From the sequence record OZ346187.1: DNA of 64,000 bases. One strand, given 5' to 3'. Within the stretch, counting starts at the first letter, position 1, and each line of letters starts with the position of its first letter. A model generated the notes under the pieces. It ran no database searches and was not told the origin of the DNA. It was given only the letters and a program-made list of their open reading frames with translations. The position numbers and the translations under genes are program-made. This stretch comes from a phage. Below are positions 7,402 through 61,310 of the stretch, piece by piece.

Positions 7402-7737
7402 CACCAGATGGTGAAGCGTGGGTGGTACGATGAAGGTGTTCGTCGTATTATTTATTACCATAAATAACATTGTGGCTTCATAGAGTAATCTATGTCGAAT
7501 AACCTCTTTAACTGCGGGAAGCCTAAACCTTATGGCAAGGTAATCCGCAACGAAGCGCTCAAAAGAGCGAACGCTCAGAGGCCATTCCGAAAGGAAGTAG
7601 ACCAGCAAGTGCGGTCGAAATGGGAGGATTCCTGTGGTTGCTTATCATAGGAATATGAGATGGTCCGATCCTACGTGAAAACGTATGGCTATGCACGTAA
7701 TGGTGCGGGGTAGCTTAACGACCTACCTGAACTATTG
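7402..7737 (+). mobile_element. group I intron without ORF, interrupting DNA polymerase at motif C (boundaries approximate)
   Basis: P-like AACTGCGGGAAG, Q-like AATCCGCAAC, R-like CTCAGAGGCCA, S-like AGATGGTCCGATCC; joining exons gives ...ILMH-DEYQLQV. Confidence 0.6.
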
Positions 7738-15702: not shown

Positions 15703-16028
15703 CAGAGATCATCATTTCAACTGCAGGGTATGTGTTCCTGACAATCATTGCACTGACCATTTTGGTGGTGGTATATGGAATTGTTATTCTCCCTATTCTT
15801 GAGACAATTAGTTTGTGTCGGTGTTGGAGAAAGGCTTACGGTCCACAGCCGTGGAAGGACTGGCCCCACCTGGTGCACATAGCGTTCTCTTATGCTTATG
15901 ATCACGCCAGCAGTGCATGCATAACCGGGTATCACGCCCACAACTGGAGCTGGGAAGGGTTGAGGAAATGGAATGTTACAAAGACCATACCTCTGCGCAT
16001 GTACAAACCTAAAAACAAAGACAGCTGA
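15699..16028 (+). CDS. putative membrane protein
   Basis: Hydrophobic N-terminal segment YVFLTIIALTILVVVYGIVILPIL. Confidence 0.45.
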   Translation: MTEIIISTAGYVFLTIIALTILVVVYGIVILPILETISLCRCWRKAYGPQPWKDWPHLVHIAFSYAYDHASSACITGYHAHNWSWEGLRKWNVTKTIPLRMYKPKNKDS

Positions 16029-16057
16029 TACTTGAAAATCCCTGGCATATCAAGTGT

Positions 16058-16092
16058 AAGGAGGATTTCTAAAATGGATTTCCTCCTTTTGA
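16058..16092 (+). terminator. putative rho-independent terminator (AAGGAGGA ... TCCTCCTT + TTTT)
   Basis: 8-bp GC-rich stem followed by T-run at the end of the rightward gene block. Confidence 0.45.
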
Positions 16093-16344
16093 TATTTCAC
16101 CGGGCCAGATATTTTAAAATTCTTAGAAAATCAGGTCTTTGAAATGAAAAACAGATCGAGTACCGAAAGAGGATGTACAAATTTTCTGATAATAATGGAC
16201 TTATTGTTATAAAAGGTCAGAGGTAAGCTGGGAAAGTTCTGGTAGAAGGGTGAGAGTATGTGCGGAAAAATCTGGAATAGTGACTTAAAGTACGGTGCGA
16301 ACGATAAGGAATTGAGCAGCACATCTTATCGTGCCTGTATTTTG

Positions 16345-16730
16345 TGTGGATGAATGAGAATACCTATCATTGTGAGAACCATTATCATTACGGGCAATTT
16401 AACAGTACCGATTATGCGCACCACTGGCGATACATACAGGGATTGATAACATGGGTTACTGTTTACGCACATAACAATTGTATTTCTTACTATTTGTGTG
16501 GGCGTTTAGACGTTGACGGTCAGAAGTCTGCAGGTTAATATCTAATCTATTGGCTGCTAACTATATCCCACACAAATAGTAAGAAATACAATTGTTATGT
16601 GCGTAAACAGTAACCCATGTTATCAATCCCTGTATGCATGCCAGTGGTGCGCATAATGGGTATTATGTTAAATTGCCCGTAATGATAATGGTTCTCACAA
16701 TGATAGGTATTCTCATTCATCCACACAAAA
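16345..16730. repeat. long near-perfect inverted repeat (~160-bp arms 16345-16504 and 16569-16730, ~65-bp spacer)
   Basis: Arms are reverse complements; ORF-track ORFs 16344-16538(+) and 16595-16786(-) translate the same peptide (NENTYHCENHYHYGQFN) from both arms. Confidence 0.85.
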
Positions 16731-16959
16731 TAGATTGCAAATGTTGTGCCACTGTGTGAACGGCCTGGCCTATTAATTTGCCTCACTGCCTTGATATTTG
16801 AGAATTATTATAAGAATGAGAAGTATTCCCATTTCGTCCGCCTGGCAGCACTCCTGTAGGTCCTGCAAGGACTCTAGCTGAAAGCTAGACCCTTCGGGCC
16901 TCCCTGCAGGTCAGGTCAAAATCGTGGTAGAATTGGGCCTGTTCAGATATTTCTGGCTG

Positions 16960-17520
16960 ACTCTTCAGGTCTGTGTGGGAAAAGCCAACCTCTCCGGCGG
17001 GGCATGGGGTCATGACGGGAAAATTGCAGGTCAATTAAAAAATTTACGTGGTGTATGAAGCGCTCTTCAGGTAAGGCAGGTATTATGGGATGAAACCCTC
17101 TTCAGGCAATGATATTTGTGGGTGTGATATTTGCTGGAAAGCCAGATATGACGGGACTCCCGGCGGGGCAGGGGTAGTACAGACAGGGAAAATATGGAGG
17201 ATGTGGTTGGGTAAATTGATCAGGCAGGTAGAGTATGGAATATGTTACAGGTATGTTAAATAGGGAGGCTGAATATCTGTAGGATTTGTGTGTAAAATCA
17301 AAGACTTAAGTGGTGTTGTGGTATTTTCTATAAATAATTCAAGTTTAATAGGTAATATTTGTCTCTATTCGCTTTGTGTGGTAAACAGATTCAGATGAGA
17401 TTGGTTTACAAGTGTATACATAATATACAAATTAAAGATACAAGAAACCCCCCTCCCCCTTCGGCTACCATTCACCTTTTCCTCTGACTGGTACTTAAAC
17501 ACTTATTCAGACTCTTCAGG
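16960..17520. repeat. dispersed direct repeats: 4x CTCTTCAGG and 2x CTCC(C)GGCGGGGCA-GGGT...GGGAAAAT
   Basis: CTCTTCAGG near 16962, 17062, 17098, 17512; longer repeat at ~16992-17024 and ~17157-17193. Confidence 0.6.
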
Positions 17521-17870
17521 TTATCACCCATATATCATATGGCAGTGACTGGTGTCCTCCGGCCCCTCTTTCGTCACCCGTCCGCTTCGCCATGCTAATG
17601 CCATAGCCAATGGTTCGGTTGTTCACCCTGTTCACTCAGGTGTATCTCCATACCCCTTCAAACCGAAGAGAACAGAAAACCCGAATTACTCGGTAAAAGA
17701 AAAGAGAAGAACTTAATTTTATCAGGATAGGCAAGAATGTCAAGGCATGACTGCTCACTAAACAAGCAAACAGTCATGTGTGGAAGGTAAGTGATTGTGG
17801 TGGTAGGAAATTTAGTTGAAAGATGTGTTATAGGTGCTTCCAGCACTTTAGCCGGGCAGCTAATTGTGTG

Positions 17871-57274: not shown

Positions 57275-57829
57275 ATGAAATACTTTGTAACAAGCGACAC
57301 ACACTTTCTCCACCAGCGGGTCATGGAGTTTGATTCATGTCAAAAACACAGATCTCAGTATGATCACAATCTTGACAGTATGAATGCGGGAATCATCACC
57401 AAGTGGAACTCTGTTGTGTCACCTGCAGACACTGTGTTCCACTTGGGAGATATTGCATGCACTAATGATAAGAATATCAACAAATTGCTCCCAGATATTC
57501 TAAATATGTTGAACGGACATATTATTCTTGTTCGTGGCAACCATGACACAAGGACGACTGTCAAAATTATGAAAGAGTTCGGTCATGAGGTTGTAGATTA
57601 TTACGAGCTTCGCCACAACAAGAATTTGATCTGTATGAGCCATTACCAGTTTGCAAAGTGGAACAGAAAGCCTCACGGATCAGTCCAACTGTTCGGTCAT
57701 GCTCACGGAACCACACAACAGTTGTTTGGCAGGCAGCTTGATGTCGGTTGGGATGTGTGGGGGAGACTCTTACCATTAGAAGAGGCATACCGTATTGCAA
57801 TGAGTTTTGATATTGACAGCAGGGAGTAA
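57275..57829 (+). CDS. calcineurin-like metallophosphoesterase
   Basis: VTSDTHF, HLGDI, RGNHD, GHAHG motifs; ORF-track start 57170 trimmed to ATG 57275. Confidence 0.6.
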   Translation: MKYFVTSDTHFLHQRVMEFDSCQKHRSQYDHNLDSMNAGIITKWNSVVSPADTVFHLGDIACTNDKNINKLLPDILNMLNGHIILVRGNHDTRTTVKIMKEFGHEVVDYYELRHNKNLICMSHYQFAKWNRKPHGSVQLFGHAHGTTQQLFGRQLDVGWDVWGRLLPLEEAYRIAMSFDIDSRE

Positions 57830-57876
57830 TCCCTGCTATTTTAAAGAAAATTGCCACACAAGGAGAATCAGGAGAT

Positions 57877-58227
57877 ATGAAAGATGGGGATAAGCTGCTA
57901 TATCTTAAAGTCCCCCTTGAAATACTATCTATGTCAAAAGTTTTGAATGACACAACTGGGGAGGTTGTTGTTCTTGACTTGTATGACAAGATCGTATACT
58001 GCTACCTGCACAACTGGTATAAGCTTGGAGGAAATTCACGCTTCACACCAAGCACAAGGAAAATTGCAGCAGATGTTGGGATAAAGAAAACAAAAGCAGC
58101 AGCGTGCGTTAAAACTTTAGAATGTGCAGGAGTGGTTGAAACATCCACACAAGGGAGAGGTAAAAGATGCACATTTTCCAAAGTTTTGCCACCAGAAGAA
58201 GTTATTCGGATGTCAACAACTGGTTAG
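57877..58227 (+). CDS. putative DNA-binding protein (winged HTH)
   Basis: STRKIAADVGIKKTKAAACVKTLECAGVVE looks like an HTH recognition helix; lies just upstream of tandem palindromic repeats. Confidence 0.45.
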   Translation: MKDGDKLLYLKVPLEILSMSKVLNDTTGEVVVLDLYDKIVYCYLHNWYKLGGNSRFTPSTRKIAADVGIKKTKAAACVKTLECAGVVETSTQGRGKRCTFSKVLPPEEVIRMSTTG

Positions 58228-58303
58228 ACCAGTAAAAACTTAAATATCTGTACTATAAGGATTCGTATGTTTTATGTTCGCCATGGAACGGATACTATTA
58301 ACT

Positions 58304-58363
58304 GTCCGTGATACGGACACATCTGCCCGTAATACGGACACTAACTGTCCGTGATACGGACAC
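58304..58363. repeat. three tandem palindromic sites GTCCGTGATACGGACAC / GCCCGTAATACGGACAC / GTCCGTGATACGGACAC at 21-22 bp spacing
   Basis: Each unit is a 6-bp inverted repeat GTCCGT..ACGGAC with 3-bp spacer; followed by a very AT-rich stretch. Confidence 0.8.
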
Positions 58364-58866
58364 ATAAAGAATATAACTAAAATAACTAAATAATAAAAAA
58401 TAAAAGATCTAGTACTTATGGTACTAAGTACATATACTTAACTTATGTAGAATATACTAGATCCTAAGTACCATGTTTTAAATTTATTACTTACTATGGG
58501 CAGTGTCGGCCCTTCATTGGCACTCGCCTACGAGGGGCGAGATGCCGGGCCTCCTTGGTGCACACAATAACAGAAGTTCATACATGCAGGTCTGTTAACA
58601 TGTGTGGGAGCGAAGCGATAGCGCAGGCCAAAGGCCGAGCACTGATGTGGGCCACCGACGAAAGCTTGCCAGCGCCGTAAGGAGTCGGTTGAGAGTCTCC
58701 CGCACGAGCTTGGATGAAGTTTATGTGTGGAAACTGACAAGAAGGCCCCTAAATCGCTCCACAGCTATATAAACTATACCAGGTAATGCAATCGCACCAG
58801 TTTGATAGAAAAGCTCGTTACAAAGCGATACAGTGAGTTTTTCTATAACTTGAAGAGGAGGCAGCT

Positions 58867-59445
58867 ATGGGTTCACGCAAAGATGACCGTGAAAAGATTG
58901 CAAAACGTTATCAGAATGAAGAACAGATGGAGAAAACTTTCAAGTGGAAGCCAGGTTTCCAGCGTAATCATTCTAACGCTCGTGATCGTAAGCATCCGGA
59001 TAAGTGGTTAACACCGCCAAATGATGGCATGCAGGTTGGGGATGAGAAGGAGCTGTCACCTGGAAAAGATGGCAACTACATTCGCACTAAGGAAGCAGGT
59101 CCAAAGGATGACAGCTATCTTGTAGATAAGGTTCTTGACGGTGTTGATGTAGGTGTTGACACTGTACGAAACCTTTTTCTTGGTTGGTATCGCACAGGGT
59201 TTTTCGACATCAAGGCTATTCGTCGTGTTTGTGATATTAAAAAGTCTGCCTACGATGATGATTCCCTACATCGCACTCTGAGACAATACTCAGAGAGGTA
59301 CGGTCATCCAGTTATCACTCTTGACGATATTAACGAAGTTATGTATCATGTAGAGGTTGTTGCAGGTAGGTTCGGTGATGCATATCTCGGTATTCTTTCT
59401 GCAAAGGATGAGGTAATGTTAAATAAGATTTACTATGAACGCTGA
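58867..59445 (+). CDS. hypothetical protein
   Basis: ORF with GAGGAGG RBS. Confidence 0.5.
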   Translation: MGSRKDDREKIAKRYQNEEQMEKTFKWKPGFQRNHSNARDRKHPDKWLTPPNDGMQVGDEKELSPGKDGNYIRTKEAGPKDDSYLVDKVLDGVDVGVDTVRNLFLGWYRTGFFDIKAIRRVCDIKKSAYDDDSLHRTLRQYSERYGHPVITLDDINEVMYHVEVVAGRFGDAYLGILSAKDEVMLNKIYYER

Positions 59446-60742: not shown

Positions 60743-60817
60743 GCCCTGTTAGCTTAGTGGATAAAGCAGCGGCCTTCTAAGCCGTTGACACTGGTTCGAG
60801 TCCAGTACGGGGTGCCA
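60743..60817 (+). tRNA. tRNA-Arg (anticodon TCT), CCA encoded
   Basis: Cloverleaf: acceptor GCCCTGT/ACGGGGT, D-arm GCTT..AAGC, anticodon loop CTTCTAA, T-arm ACTGG-TTCGAGT-CCAGT. Confidence 0.8.
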
Positions 60818-61211: not shown

Positions 61212-61310
61212 GCTAGGTAAGCCCTTTGGCAAGGGCGAGGATTTTTAATCCTGAAAATAGACGAGGTAGTCGTTGAATACATAGGTGGTTCGATTCCATC
61301 ACCTAGCACC
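61212..61310 (+). tRNA. atypical tRNA-like gene (possible tRNA-Lys TTT with ~30-nt extra arm) or tRNA pseudogene
   Basis: Perfect acceptor GCTAGGT/ACCTAGC, D-arm GCCC-TTTGGCAA-GGGC, T-arm GGTGG-TTCGATT-CCATC, but 47 nt between D and T arms; loop TTTTTAA on a 4-bp stem. Confidence 0.4.

Follow-up and report, generated by a model that had tools for sequence, protein, structure and literature searches.

The replication origin of phage lambda is laid out as iterons, an AT-rich region and a palindrome. Single-strand initiation (ssi) signals of the G4 and phiX174 types are oriented, non-coding clusters of GC-rich hairpins, 100-300 nt long, which lie close to origins in unrelated replicons of one host. 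At ColE1 (RNA II), at T4 oriF and oriG (R-loop RNAs) and at the T7 origin promoters, a structured transcript beside an unwinding region is used in cis. Structured RNAs are also known from rrn and nut leaders and, as GC-rich RNAs with many hairpins, from phages (ROOL, GOLLD, T4 RNAs C and D). In this study we analyzed a locus that resembles each of these systems in part. It lies in a 64,000-nucleotide stretch of phage DNA (sequence record OZ346187.1; hereafter the window, to which all positions refer unless stated otherwise), which belongs to a Vequintavirus, an rV5-like Escherichia coli myophage. A GC-rich island in the 640-bp gap separating two plus-strand genes, which encode a helix-turn-helix (HTH) protein of 116 aa and a protein of 192 aa, contains a conserved element of about 300 nt. 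This element is very probably functional, non-coding and folded, and would represent a new family. Our preferred account of the whole, which we hold tentatively, is that the folded element at 58503-58800 acts as a plus-strand RNA in a module linked to a replication origin.

The locus shares its layout with lambda-type origins. Three dyad-symmetric repeats about two helical turns apart are followed by about 130 bp of AT-rich DNA and by a stable GC-rich hairpin (P1), a winged-helix gene with weak initiator matches lies alongside, and the 23-bp iterons of the related plasmids described below are of the textbook kind. In contrast, the folded region spans about 300 nt here and is a 28-bp palindrome in lambda. 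The element also contains covarying internal hairpins with RNA-type loops, and it was kept while initiator and repeats were exchanged.

Conservation of the element in Vequintaviruses

An earlier note on this DNA, made from the letters alone, had described a GC-rich island at 58500-58760 with AT-rich flanks and nested complementary segments, and had suggested a structured non-coding RNA or a horizontally acquired remnant. The composition was as described. The GC content was 58.5% at 58500-58699 and 53.5% at 58600-58799 (200 nt each), against 30.5% upstream (58300-58499) and 42-43% downstream. The complementary segments were also found on reading the sequence: GGCCC (58508-58512) pairs with GGGCC (58547-58551) and encloses GGCA/UGCC and CUCGCC-UACGAG-GGCGAG, and GGCC-AAA-GGCC caps another hairpin (P3, Table 1). 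The interval, by contrast, had been drawn too short, since nhmmer homology to plasmids extends the conserved element to about 58503-58800.

A BLAST search of phage records with 58200-58900 gave 119 matches, every one a Vequintavirus, and the closest was phage nomine (99.7%). The element is present in all 119 of the 119 Vequintavirus records, with identities of 87-99%, and in one clearly more divergent 137-kb phage contig found in IMG/VR and metagenomes (L007, L014, L032). Its conservation differs by domain. Among the phages, 6% of the columns vary in P1 and 17% in the central domain, against 60-65% in the linker and tail. The most divergent phage retains 96% identity in P1 and 93% in the central domain, compared with about 65% in the linker and tail.

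Beyond Vequintavirus contigs, exact-pattern scans of viral contigs, species-representative genomes and metagenomes returned just two plasmid-like contigs of 13-15 kb; the remaining matches were chance matches in GC-rich coding DNA (L006, L013, L015-L031). No extended similarity of the element to E. coli chromosomes was found by BLAST. The element family is narrow, comprising one phage genus and one plasmid family. The 116-aa and 192-aa neighboring proteins are confined to Vequintavirus. As a side observation, eighteen 'Campylobacter phage' records (MG0656xx) are 96-98% identical to E. coli Vequintaviruses over 58200-58900, and their host labels look doubtful.

A search against structured-RNA families, which the earlier note had called for, was run with Rfam 15 at the gathering threshold. 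Its 4227 models include signal recognition particle (SRP) RNA, 6S RNA, tmRNA, RNase P, C4/CI antisense RNA, ROOL, GOLLD, ribozymes and riboswitches. On the whole window only tRNAs and one group I intron were detected, all of them elsewhere, so that no matching family was obtained for the island. A permissive scan of 58200-59000 returned noise (the best hit, rli43, scored 22.5 bits against a threshold of 100), and six plasmid loci gave no match to Rfam.

Homologues in plasmids with capsid genes

Partial matches of about 83% were found in small circular E. coli plasmids of 13.2-13.7 kb; CP043822 (39.6 kb), the record of which is a trimer, holds three copies. A profile built from the phage alignment recovered the plasmid copies by nhmmer with E-values of 1e-23 to 1e-15 for most and of 5e-06 for the most divergent one (CP134895), and the homology between phage and plasmid reached about 58802-58837. 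Such a plasmid occurs in 7 of 5,426 complete E. coli genomes, with no chromosomal copy among them, and two more plasmid-like contigs (13.9 and 15.5 kb) come from metagenomes. The plasmid copies are modular. Two to five hairpin modules, with UGUGUGGG-type linkers, are inserted between their 5' region and their core.

This plasmid family (L041, that is NZ_CP020521.1; L008-L012, L019, L025, L045-L047) is apparently undescribed. About one third of each plasmid is non-coding. The genes encode a major capsid protein, a Dit-like tail protein, a tail-completion protein, a tape-measure protein, small HTH proteins and a 303-aa winged-helix protein, which has weak matches to PHROG 428 and 391, both phage 'replication initiation protein' families. 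No terminase or portal is annotated in these plasmids. They look like plasmid-borne phage satellites, and we refer to them as putative satellites. The element is the sole significant similarity between plasmid and window, and the plasmid proteins had no match in the window. Megablast of the plasmids against phage records gave no match, and the capsid protein matches only 140-150-kb myophages of other hosts, at 22-25% identity. On these comparisons, a helper link between Vequintaviruses and these plasmids has no support beyond the element.

Separately, we observed that the capsid-operon leader of L041 (2560-3069 of that plasmid) begins with a strong sigma-70 promoter (TTGACA, 17 nt, TATAAT, at about 2563-2591) and continues as a structured leader of about 470 nt. 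This leader contains CCACACAG...CUGUGUGG and a terminator-like hairpin (AUAGCCCCGC...GCGGGGCUAU, then a U/C-rich run), an arrangement which suggests that the late genes may be under antitermination control.

Secondary structure and covariation

The folding energy of the phage sequence was compared with that of shuffled sequence. For 58490-58770 the z-scores were -2.5 (plus strand) and -2.6 (minus strand), and for 58500-58720 they were -1.2 with RNA and -1.9 with DNA parameters. Because folding energy alone is not outstanding against shuffled sequence, the structural case must rest on comparative evidence. The covariation analysis of homologous regions that the earlier note had suggested was carried out, and P1, P5 and the satellite module of the plasmids were found to keep their pairing through double substitutions.

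P1 marks the 5' limit of conservation. Its 16 pairs are paired in 100% of the cells in all sequences, and in plasmid CP020521 two G-C pairs are replaced by U-A through double changes. The linker that follows has an 18-nt deletion in rV5 and Pr121LW. In P5, the stem becomes GCUGCC/GGCAGC in most plasmids, with four pairs changed on both sides and a closing pair that is A-U, G.U or G-C. Four further plasmids have UCCGGAU/AUCCGGA at this place, with a different loop. The conserved P5 loop, GAAAGCUUGCCAGCGCC-GUAA-GGA, combines a GNRA tetraloop (GUAA or GGAA) with an AAGCUU palindrome. An alternative pairing predicted by RNAalifold for the P5 region (GCUUGCC.. with ..GGU..GAG) was rejected on three grounds: it breaks in the plasmids, its end pair is found as G-U, G-C or G-A, and CCGAC/GUCGG covaries.

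The satellite module between the UGUGUGGG linkers of the plasmids consists of three hairpins, of which the two that are alignable across plasmids were counted. Six of their 12 pairs are doubly changed, and 100% of the cells are paired. Among 500 shuffles, none reached the covariation score or the percentage paired, and one reached the number of doubly changed pairs.

P2 is a long-range irregular stem around the central domain, with about 18 pairs, six of them G.U, and some breaks. One of its pairs is seen as U-A, A-U and G-C, and for another, nine phages have U.G where the window has U-A. Within its 3' strand, GAGUCUCCCGC is among the best-conserved blocks of the phages and most plasmids, and the C to U variants of this strand in L007 and AP045055 still pair, as G.U or A-U. 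In P3 the top of the stem is invariant; the lower part is weakly supported (U-A to U.G, G.U to G-C, and a few breaks). The tail holds sequence blocks common to phages and plasmids, AAGGCCCCUAAAUCGC at 58744-58759 and GCAAUCGCACCAG at 58788-58800, and the conserved tail blocks include GGCCCCUAAAU and GCAAUCGCA. A GGAC-GUCU pairing, judged by eye, fitted in seven cases and failed in six, and was dropped.

As far as sequence analysis goes, these results support the proposal of a structured non-coding RNA. The element is kept in 119 phage genomes, its stems are compensatory between phages and plasmids, the plus strand carries GNRA and UUCG loops, and a codon pattern is absent (see below).

Table 1. 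Positions in the window of the element, its parts and the features around it.
Feature	Position	Strand	Description	Basis
Sigma-70-type promoter	57813-57842	+	TTGACA, 18 nt, TATTTT	Sequence; equivalent site annotated P76 in the rV5 record
Winged-helix protein gene (rV5 ORF79)	57877-58227	+	116 aa	PF13730 HTH_36 and DUF6945, both weak
Three palindromic repeats	58299-58365		TGTCCGTGATACGGACA, spacing 21-22 bp	Repeat search; repeat_region in phage nomine
AT-rich spacer	58366-58495		About 25-30% GC, short palindromes	Composition, inverted repeats
ORF	58503-58598	+	31 aa	
P1	58508-58551	+	16-bp GC-rich hairpin; 6-nt internal loop, A bulge, UACGAG apical loop	Comparative
Linker	58552-58588	+	Poorly conserved	65% of columns vary
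ORF	58555-58680	+	41 aa	
P2, 5' strand	58589-58610	+	GGUCUGUUAACAUGUGUGGGAG	RNAalifold prediction
ORF	58595-58705	-	36 aa	
ORF78	58602-58772	+	56 aa	Annotated in rV5 and BASEL phages
P3	58615-58648	+	Hairpin, cap GGCC-AAA-GGCC (58626-58636)	Alignment, pair counts
P5	58654-58689	+	Stem ACCGAC/GUCGGU closing a 24-nt conserved loop	Covariation
P2, 3' strand	58697-58715	+	CUCCCGCACGAGCUUGGAU	RNAalifold; alignments
3' tail	58716-58800	+	60% of columns vary	Alignment
A/U-rich hairpin	58805-58846	+	12 bp, AUAGAAAAGCUC / GAGUUUUUCUAU	Repeat search; alignment
192-aa gene (rV5 ORF77)	58867-59445	+	Vequintavirus-specific	PHROG 12226, unknown function

An origin-like module with exchangeable parts

In the phages, the element is preceded by the gene of the 116-aa protein, the palindromic repeats and the AT-rich spacer (Table 1). 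The protein matches PHROG 12838, 8102 and 428 ('replication initiation protein') and no NCBIfam model. In sequence records it is labeled 'putative transcriptional regulator' or 'replication initiation protein', the latter in several RefSeq records. Similarity between this protein and the 303-aa plasmid protein was not detectable. The repeats are candidate binding sites of an initiator or an operator-binding protein, and the spacer is a candidate DNA-unwinding and/or promoter region. CTTACTAT at 58490-58497 immediately precedes the element. The AT-rich spacer is not kept in the divergent phage L007.

A further arrangement was found in L014 (1319-1875 of IMGVR_UViG_3300010279_000001). There, a different DNA-binding protein of 143 aa takes the place of the 116-aa one, the repeats are of another palindrome (TGATACATATTTGCATCAGAT, four or five copies) and the AT-rich spacer is unrelated, while P1 and the central domain are retained. 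L014 can be regarded as a natural exchange of the protein together with its binding sites. In the plasmids, five to seven iterons with 23-bp spacing and of at least three sequence types are followed by a short AT-rich (AATAGA-rich) stretch, a strong GC hairpin and the element; the Rep-like gene is about 1 kb downstream. In both phages and plasmids, the protein and its sites thus appear to form a swappable specificity module, and the adjoining folded element appears to be the constant part.

Two features expected of an iteron-type or lambda-type origin were found in both settings: at least three regular repeats and an adjacent AT-rich region. The nearby genes for the 116-aa protein in the phage and the 303-aa protein in the plasmids, with weak matches to initiator families, are candidates for the initiator gene. 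The cumulative GC skew of the window has its minimum about 1.7 kb to the left of the element, where the direction of transcription also switches. The same skew change was reported for rV5, for which the replication origin was left undefined (PMC3606486).

From these observations the following scheme can be proposed. The comparisons show that the element exists, is conserved, covaries in part, is non-coding and keeps its synteny, whereas its transcription, its active strand, its processing and its link to replication are inferred. The module would be ordered as DNA-binding protein gene, its repeated sites, AT-rich stretch and folded element, and would constitute an iteron-type, lambda-like phage origin, or at least a regulated early control region. 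The element would be transcribed from the plus strand as part of a rightward early transcript that starts either at the promoter upstream of the HTH gene (57813-57842) or in the AT-rich stretch. That promoter probably drives rightward transcription across both the HTH gene and the island; between it and the island no terminator-like site was predicted within 58100-59000. The folded transcript would have P1 as a boundary hairpin and the G.U-rich P2 as a stem enclosing the central domain, with P3 and P5 (with its GNRA-capped loop) inside. Cleavage in the P2 duplex, acting as a processing stem, might free this domain. The initiator and its repeats would supply a swappable specificity, the folded element would be the constant part facing shared machinery, and the origin-proximal transcript could prime, activate or limit initiation in cis.

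Several points weigh against this scheme. The folding energy of the phage sequence by itself is not significant and lies close to what is expected by chance for a GC-rich stretch, and the helices predicted in the tail (58722-58779) were rejected as unsupported, with several A.C cells. For the phage alignment, the two strands have equivalent consensus energies (-74.75 and -74.13 kcal/mol). Most covarying stems are pure Watson-Crick and would therefore be compatible with either strand and also with single-stranded DNA. A search of both strands of 58100-59000 gave no sigma-70-like promoter. The strong sigma-70 promoters of the plasmids lie downstream of the element, not upstream, and its origin side carries, in these plasmids, a minus-strand hairpin that resembles a terminator. 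The origin call itself draws solely on sequence features, and the Rep-like assignments are weak. The adjacency to repeats may reflect inheritance rather than function, since the phage and the plasmid are the only two independent contexts. Finally, no counterpart was found in the related genera, represented by Seunavirus 4MG and Justusliebigvirus JohannJBalmer, in which synteny was checked.

Plus-strand RNA or single-stranded DNA

Several observations point to the plus strand and to RNA. All plasmid copies fold better on the plus strand, by 2-19 kcal/mol, with better z-scores in five of seven, and the flanking genes run in the plus-strand direction in phages as well as in plasmids. The P5 tetraloop varies within GNRA only (GUAA/GGAA), C(UUCG)G loops recur in the plasmid modules, and G.U acts as an intermediate in covarying pairs (the closing pair of P5, P2). 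On the chosen structure there are 125 G.U against 15 A.C cells, a count which is biased because the structure was derived from the plus strand. The active form is probably a plus-strand RNA, with single-stranded DNA as the main alternative.

According to this alternative, the hairpins P1 and P5 and the small modules would fold on the strand displaced after unwinding of the AT-rich region, as a priming or primosome-assembly signal or as a lambda-type origin palindrome, and would be recognized by priming and helicase proteins of host or phage. The locus is similar to the ssi signals in size, GC-rich hairpins, orientation, non-coding nature, proximity to a putative origin and occurrence in unrelated replicons of one host. 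The element directly adjoins iterons and an AT-rich stretch in phage and plasmids, the number of its hairpin modules varies, and the strongly covarying stems (P1, P5, satellite modules) are all Watson-Crick and equally good in DNA. Folding with DNA parameters (z = -1.9) is no worse than with RNA parameters, and the sharing between phage and plasmid in one host fits a reliance on host priming proteins. GCGAAGC, which forms an unusually stable mini-hairpin in DNA, is found at 58610-58616 and recurs in plasmid CP134895. On the other hand, ssi signals act as DNA, need no G.U pairs and are without GNRA or UUCG loop signatures, whereas P2 would contain six G.T mismatches in about 18 pairs, and both the recurrence of UUCG loops and a tetraloop that changes within GNRA (GUAA to GGAA) are features of the RNA type. 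Nor would this alternative explain the P5 loop, which is long, conserved and unpaired, or the conservation of the tail blocks. We consider the single-stranded-DNA form unlikely, though a serious competitor to the plus-strand RNA.

If the element is indeed an origin-associated RNA, it would differ from the primer of ColE1. Transcription of RNA II begins about 555 nt upstream of the origin and proceeds towards it, whereas the plus strand of the element reads away from the repeats. No promoter is predicted in the AT-rich stretch, and the element has no similarity to RNA II. In the plasmids the only candidate is a weak minus-strand promoter, on the side of the element away from the origin. A primer RNA of the ColE1 type was rejected on promoter position and direction.

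Possible RNA functions unrelated to replication

It is worth considering that the element may be a structured RNA unrelated to replication. It could serve the long rightward unit (small early genes, then the tRNA cluster) as a leader or as an element of processive antitermination, it could be a stable small RNA processed by RNase III, or it could be a decoy or sponge, aimed for instance at a host defence that targets RNA, and carried by phages and plasmids alike as exchangeable cargo. The transcription unit of rV5 spans gene 81 to gene 27 (PMC3606486). The element lies near the start of this unit, with RNA ligase and polynucleotide kinase genes just upstream and tRNA genes about 2 kb downstream; ROOL, GOLLD and T4 RNAs C and D likewise occur near tRNA genes. 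As in ROOL/GOLLD-type RNAs, a self-complementary loop, here AAGCUU, could mediate RNA-RNA contacts. The variable number of modules with conserved linkers is reminiscent of protein-sponge RNAs.

The likeness to rrn and nut leaders is more specific in sequence. The GU-rich linker UGUGUGGG, at 58601-58608 in the 5' strand of P2 and with two to five occurrences per plasmid copy, exactly matches the core of boxC in the rrnB leader of E. coli (CAAUCUGUGUGGGCAC), and the P2 duplex, like the RNase III processing stem of rrn leaders, is a long irregular duplex around a structured domain. The linker motif is over-represented in plasmid non-coding DNA and in the window. A boxA-like CGCUCUUUG stands beside the linker in two plasmids.

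However, the boxA consensus (GCUCUUUA) is not conserved. The boxA-like stretch of the phage, UCUGUUAACA, carries one extra base, CGCUCUUUG is found only in the module of CP020521 and CP148565, and most plasmids have no boxA. The boxB-like hairpin at a fixed position is absent. Because boxA is not conserved across the element family, membership in the nut/rrn antitermination class fails. Nor is the element the leader of the downstream operon of the plasmids, because the strong promoters of that operon lie after it. Compared with ROOL and GOLLD, the element is much smaller and is limited to one phage genus and one plasmid family, and no Rfam antiterminator or sponge matched it. No stretch complementary to the P5 loop, which might have served as a trans target, was found within the 64-kb window. 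The constant adjacency to swappable binding-site modules would remain unexplained by such functions. We regard an RNA without a role in replication as improbable but worth keeping in view beside the origin-linked RNA that we prefer.

The window holds 10 copies of TGTGTGGG where 2.2 are expected, and GTGTGG occurs 25 times in the 13.7-kb plasmid L041 against 4.7 expected, with 15 of the 25 in the non-coding third. The over-represented motif is the boxC core of the E. coli rrnB leader (L042, CAATCTGTGTGGGCAC). Other likenesses were considered and rejected. On comparison by eye, GAGUCUCCCGCGC resembles the start of the E. coli I-E CRISPR repeat at about 11 of 14 bases; the hairpin and the 3' handle of the repeat are absent from the phage sequence, and a mimic of the repeat was discarded. 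Likenesses to 4.5S RNA/SRP domain IV (CCGGAAGGAGGCAGC), to the 530 loop of 16S rRNA (UGCCAGC.GCC.GUAA) and to DnaA boxes were dropped, since they were not collinear and had no search support.

Coding potential and the remnant hypothesis

The earlier note had mentioned a minus-strand open reading frame (ORF) at 58528-58740 as the only one in the island and as a composition artefact. This ORF (70 aa, TTG start) was confirmed, alongside four others of at least 30 aa, and its reading as an artefact is supported by an in-frame stop in most other Vequintaviruses. Two plus-strand ORFs of the island are annotated as 'hypothetical protein' in some records, and ORF78 is so annotated in several. ORF78 is open in close relatives and in most Vequintaviruses, and two indels among the phages are multiples of three. 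Its variable columns, however, fall on codon positions 1/2/3 as 14/19/17, with no third-position excess, and one second-codon-position site varies between U, C and A. ORF78 starts with GTG, has no ribosome-binding site (RBS), is truncated in the divergent phage and is shifted in frame among plasmids by a 1-nt indel. On comparison of the sequences, all small ORFs in the island fail the conservation or the codon-position test.

A functionless GC-rich remnant of horizontal transfer, with hairpins as chance products of composition, would fit the unremarkable single-sequence z-scores and a GC content different from the rest of the phage, and the plasmid homology proves a past transfer. The part of the earlier suggestion that concerns transfer therefore stands, in that the element was exchanged between phages and plasmids. 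A remnant it is not, since the element is under constraint: it is kept in all 119 genomes with domain-specific conservation (6-17% against 60-65% variable columns), double substitutions maintain its stems in independent lineages, and it was kept while the neighboring gene and repeats were replaced. The remnant reading is accordingly very improbable. A small protein encoded by ORF78 or by the minus-strand ORF is slightly more improbable still, given the codon positions and interruptions above and the compensatory nature of the stem substitutions, and both readings are effectively excluded.

Implications

Searches of the accessible literature for a non-coding RNA, transcriptome, origin or satellite of Vequintavirus found nothing relevant. 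Vequintaviruses are common E. coli phages that are used in O157 typing and are candidates for therapy, and the element offers a concrete candidate for their origin region. It also represents an RNA-like family, supported by covariation, that Rfam lacks. Through it, a strictly lytic phage genus is connected to plasmids with capsid, tape-measure and tail genes, the type of link expected of helper phages and satellites.

More speculatively, the element might belong to a class of structured, origin-associated RNAs that has gone unrecognized and that is passed between virulent Vequintaviruses and the plasmids of about 13 kb. It would then be the constant 'handle' that gives different initiator/iteron modules access to a shared machinery of replication or transcription. 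We consider this extended proposal rather doubtful. If it were true, the element could let the putative satellites couple their replication or gene expression to phage infection, and a shared handle would be a non-coding route of interaction or exchange between phage and satellite-like plasmid. Even if the element were an ordinary leader or processing site, its description would correct 'hypothetical protein' annotations in many GenBank records.

Neighboring features and further observations

The genes upstream of the HTH gene encode an RNA ligase, a polynucleotide kinase and a phosphoesterase. On the other side of the element, the A/U-rich hairpin at 58805-58846 stands directly 5' of the RBS of the 192-aa gene. 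All phages, the divergent one included, have it almost unchanged, and it is missing from the plasmids. This hairpin is probably part of the leader of the 192-aa gene rather than of the shared element, and it may be a translational control element of that gene.

The tRNA cluster begins about 2 kb downstream of the island, at 60743. It contains a tRNA-like gene of 97-99 nt (61212-61310), for which ARAGORN gives a four-base anticodon (atcc) and Rfam a score of 35.5 bits. The gene is named 'tRNA-OTHER' in phage nomine and is not among the six tRNAs listed for rV5 (PMC3606486).

Two further regions of the window are worth recording. About 1.7 kb at 16028-17790 contain no ORF of at least 70 aa and lie at the GC-skew maximum, where transcription converges; a 'non-coding' box is also mentioned for rV5 (PMC3606486). 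This region has a long inverted repeat with arms at about 16425-16502 and 16567-16644 (inner ends ...CTTACTATTTGTGTGGG), and 25 nt of it (16792-16816) show 92% identity to non-coding positions 518-542 of plasmid L041 (E = 0.005). The group I intron detected by Rfam (RF00028, 64.7 bits, full-length) lies on the plus strand at 7452-7687.

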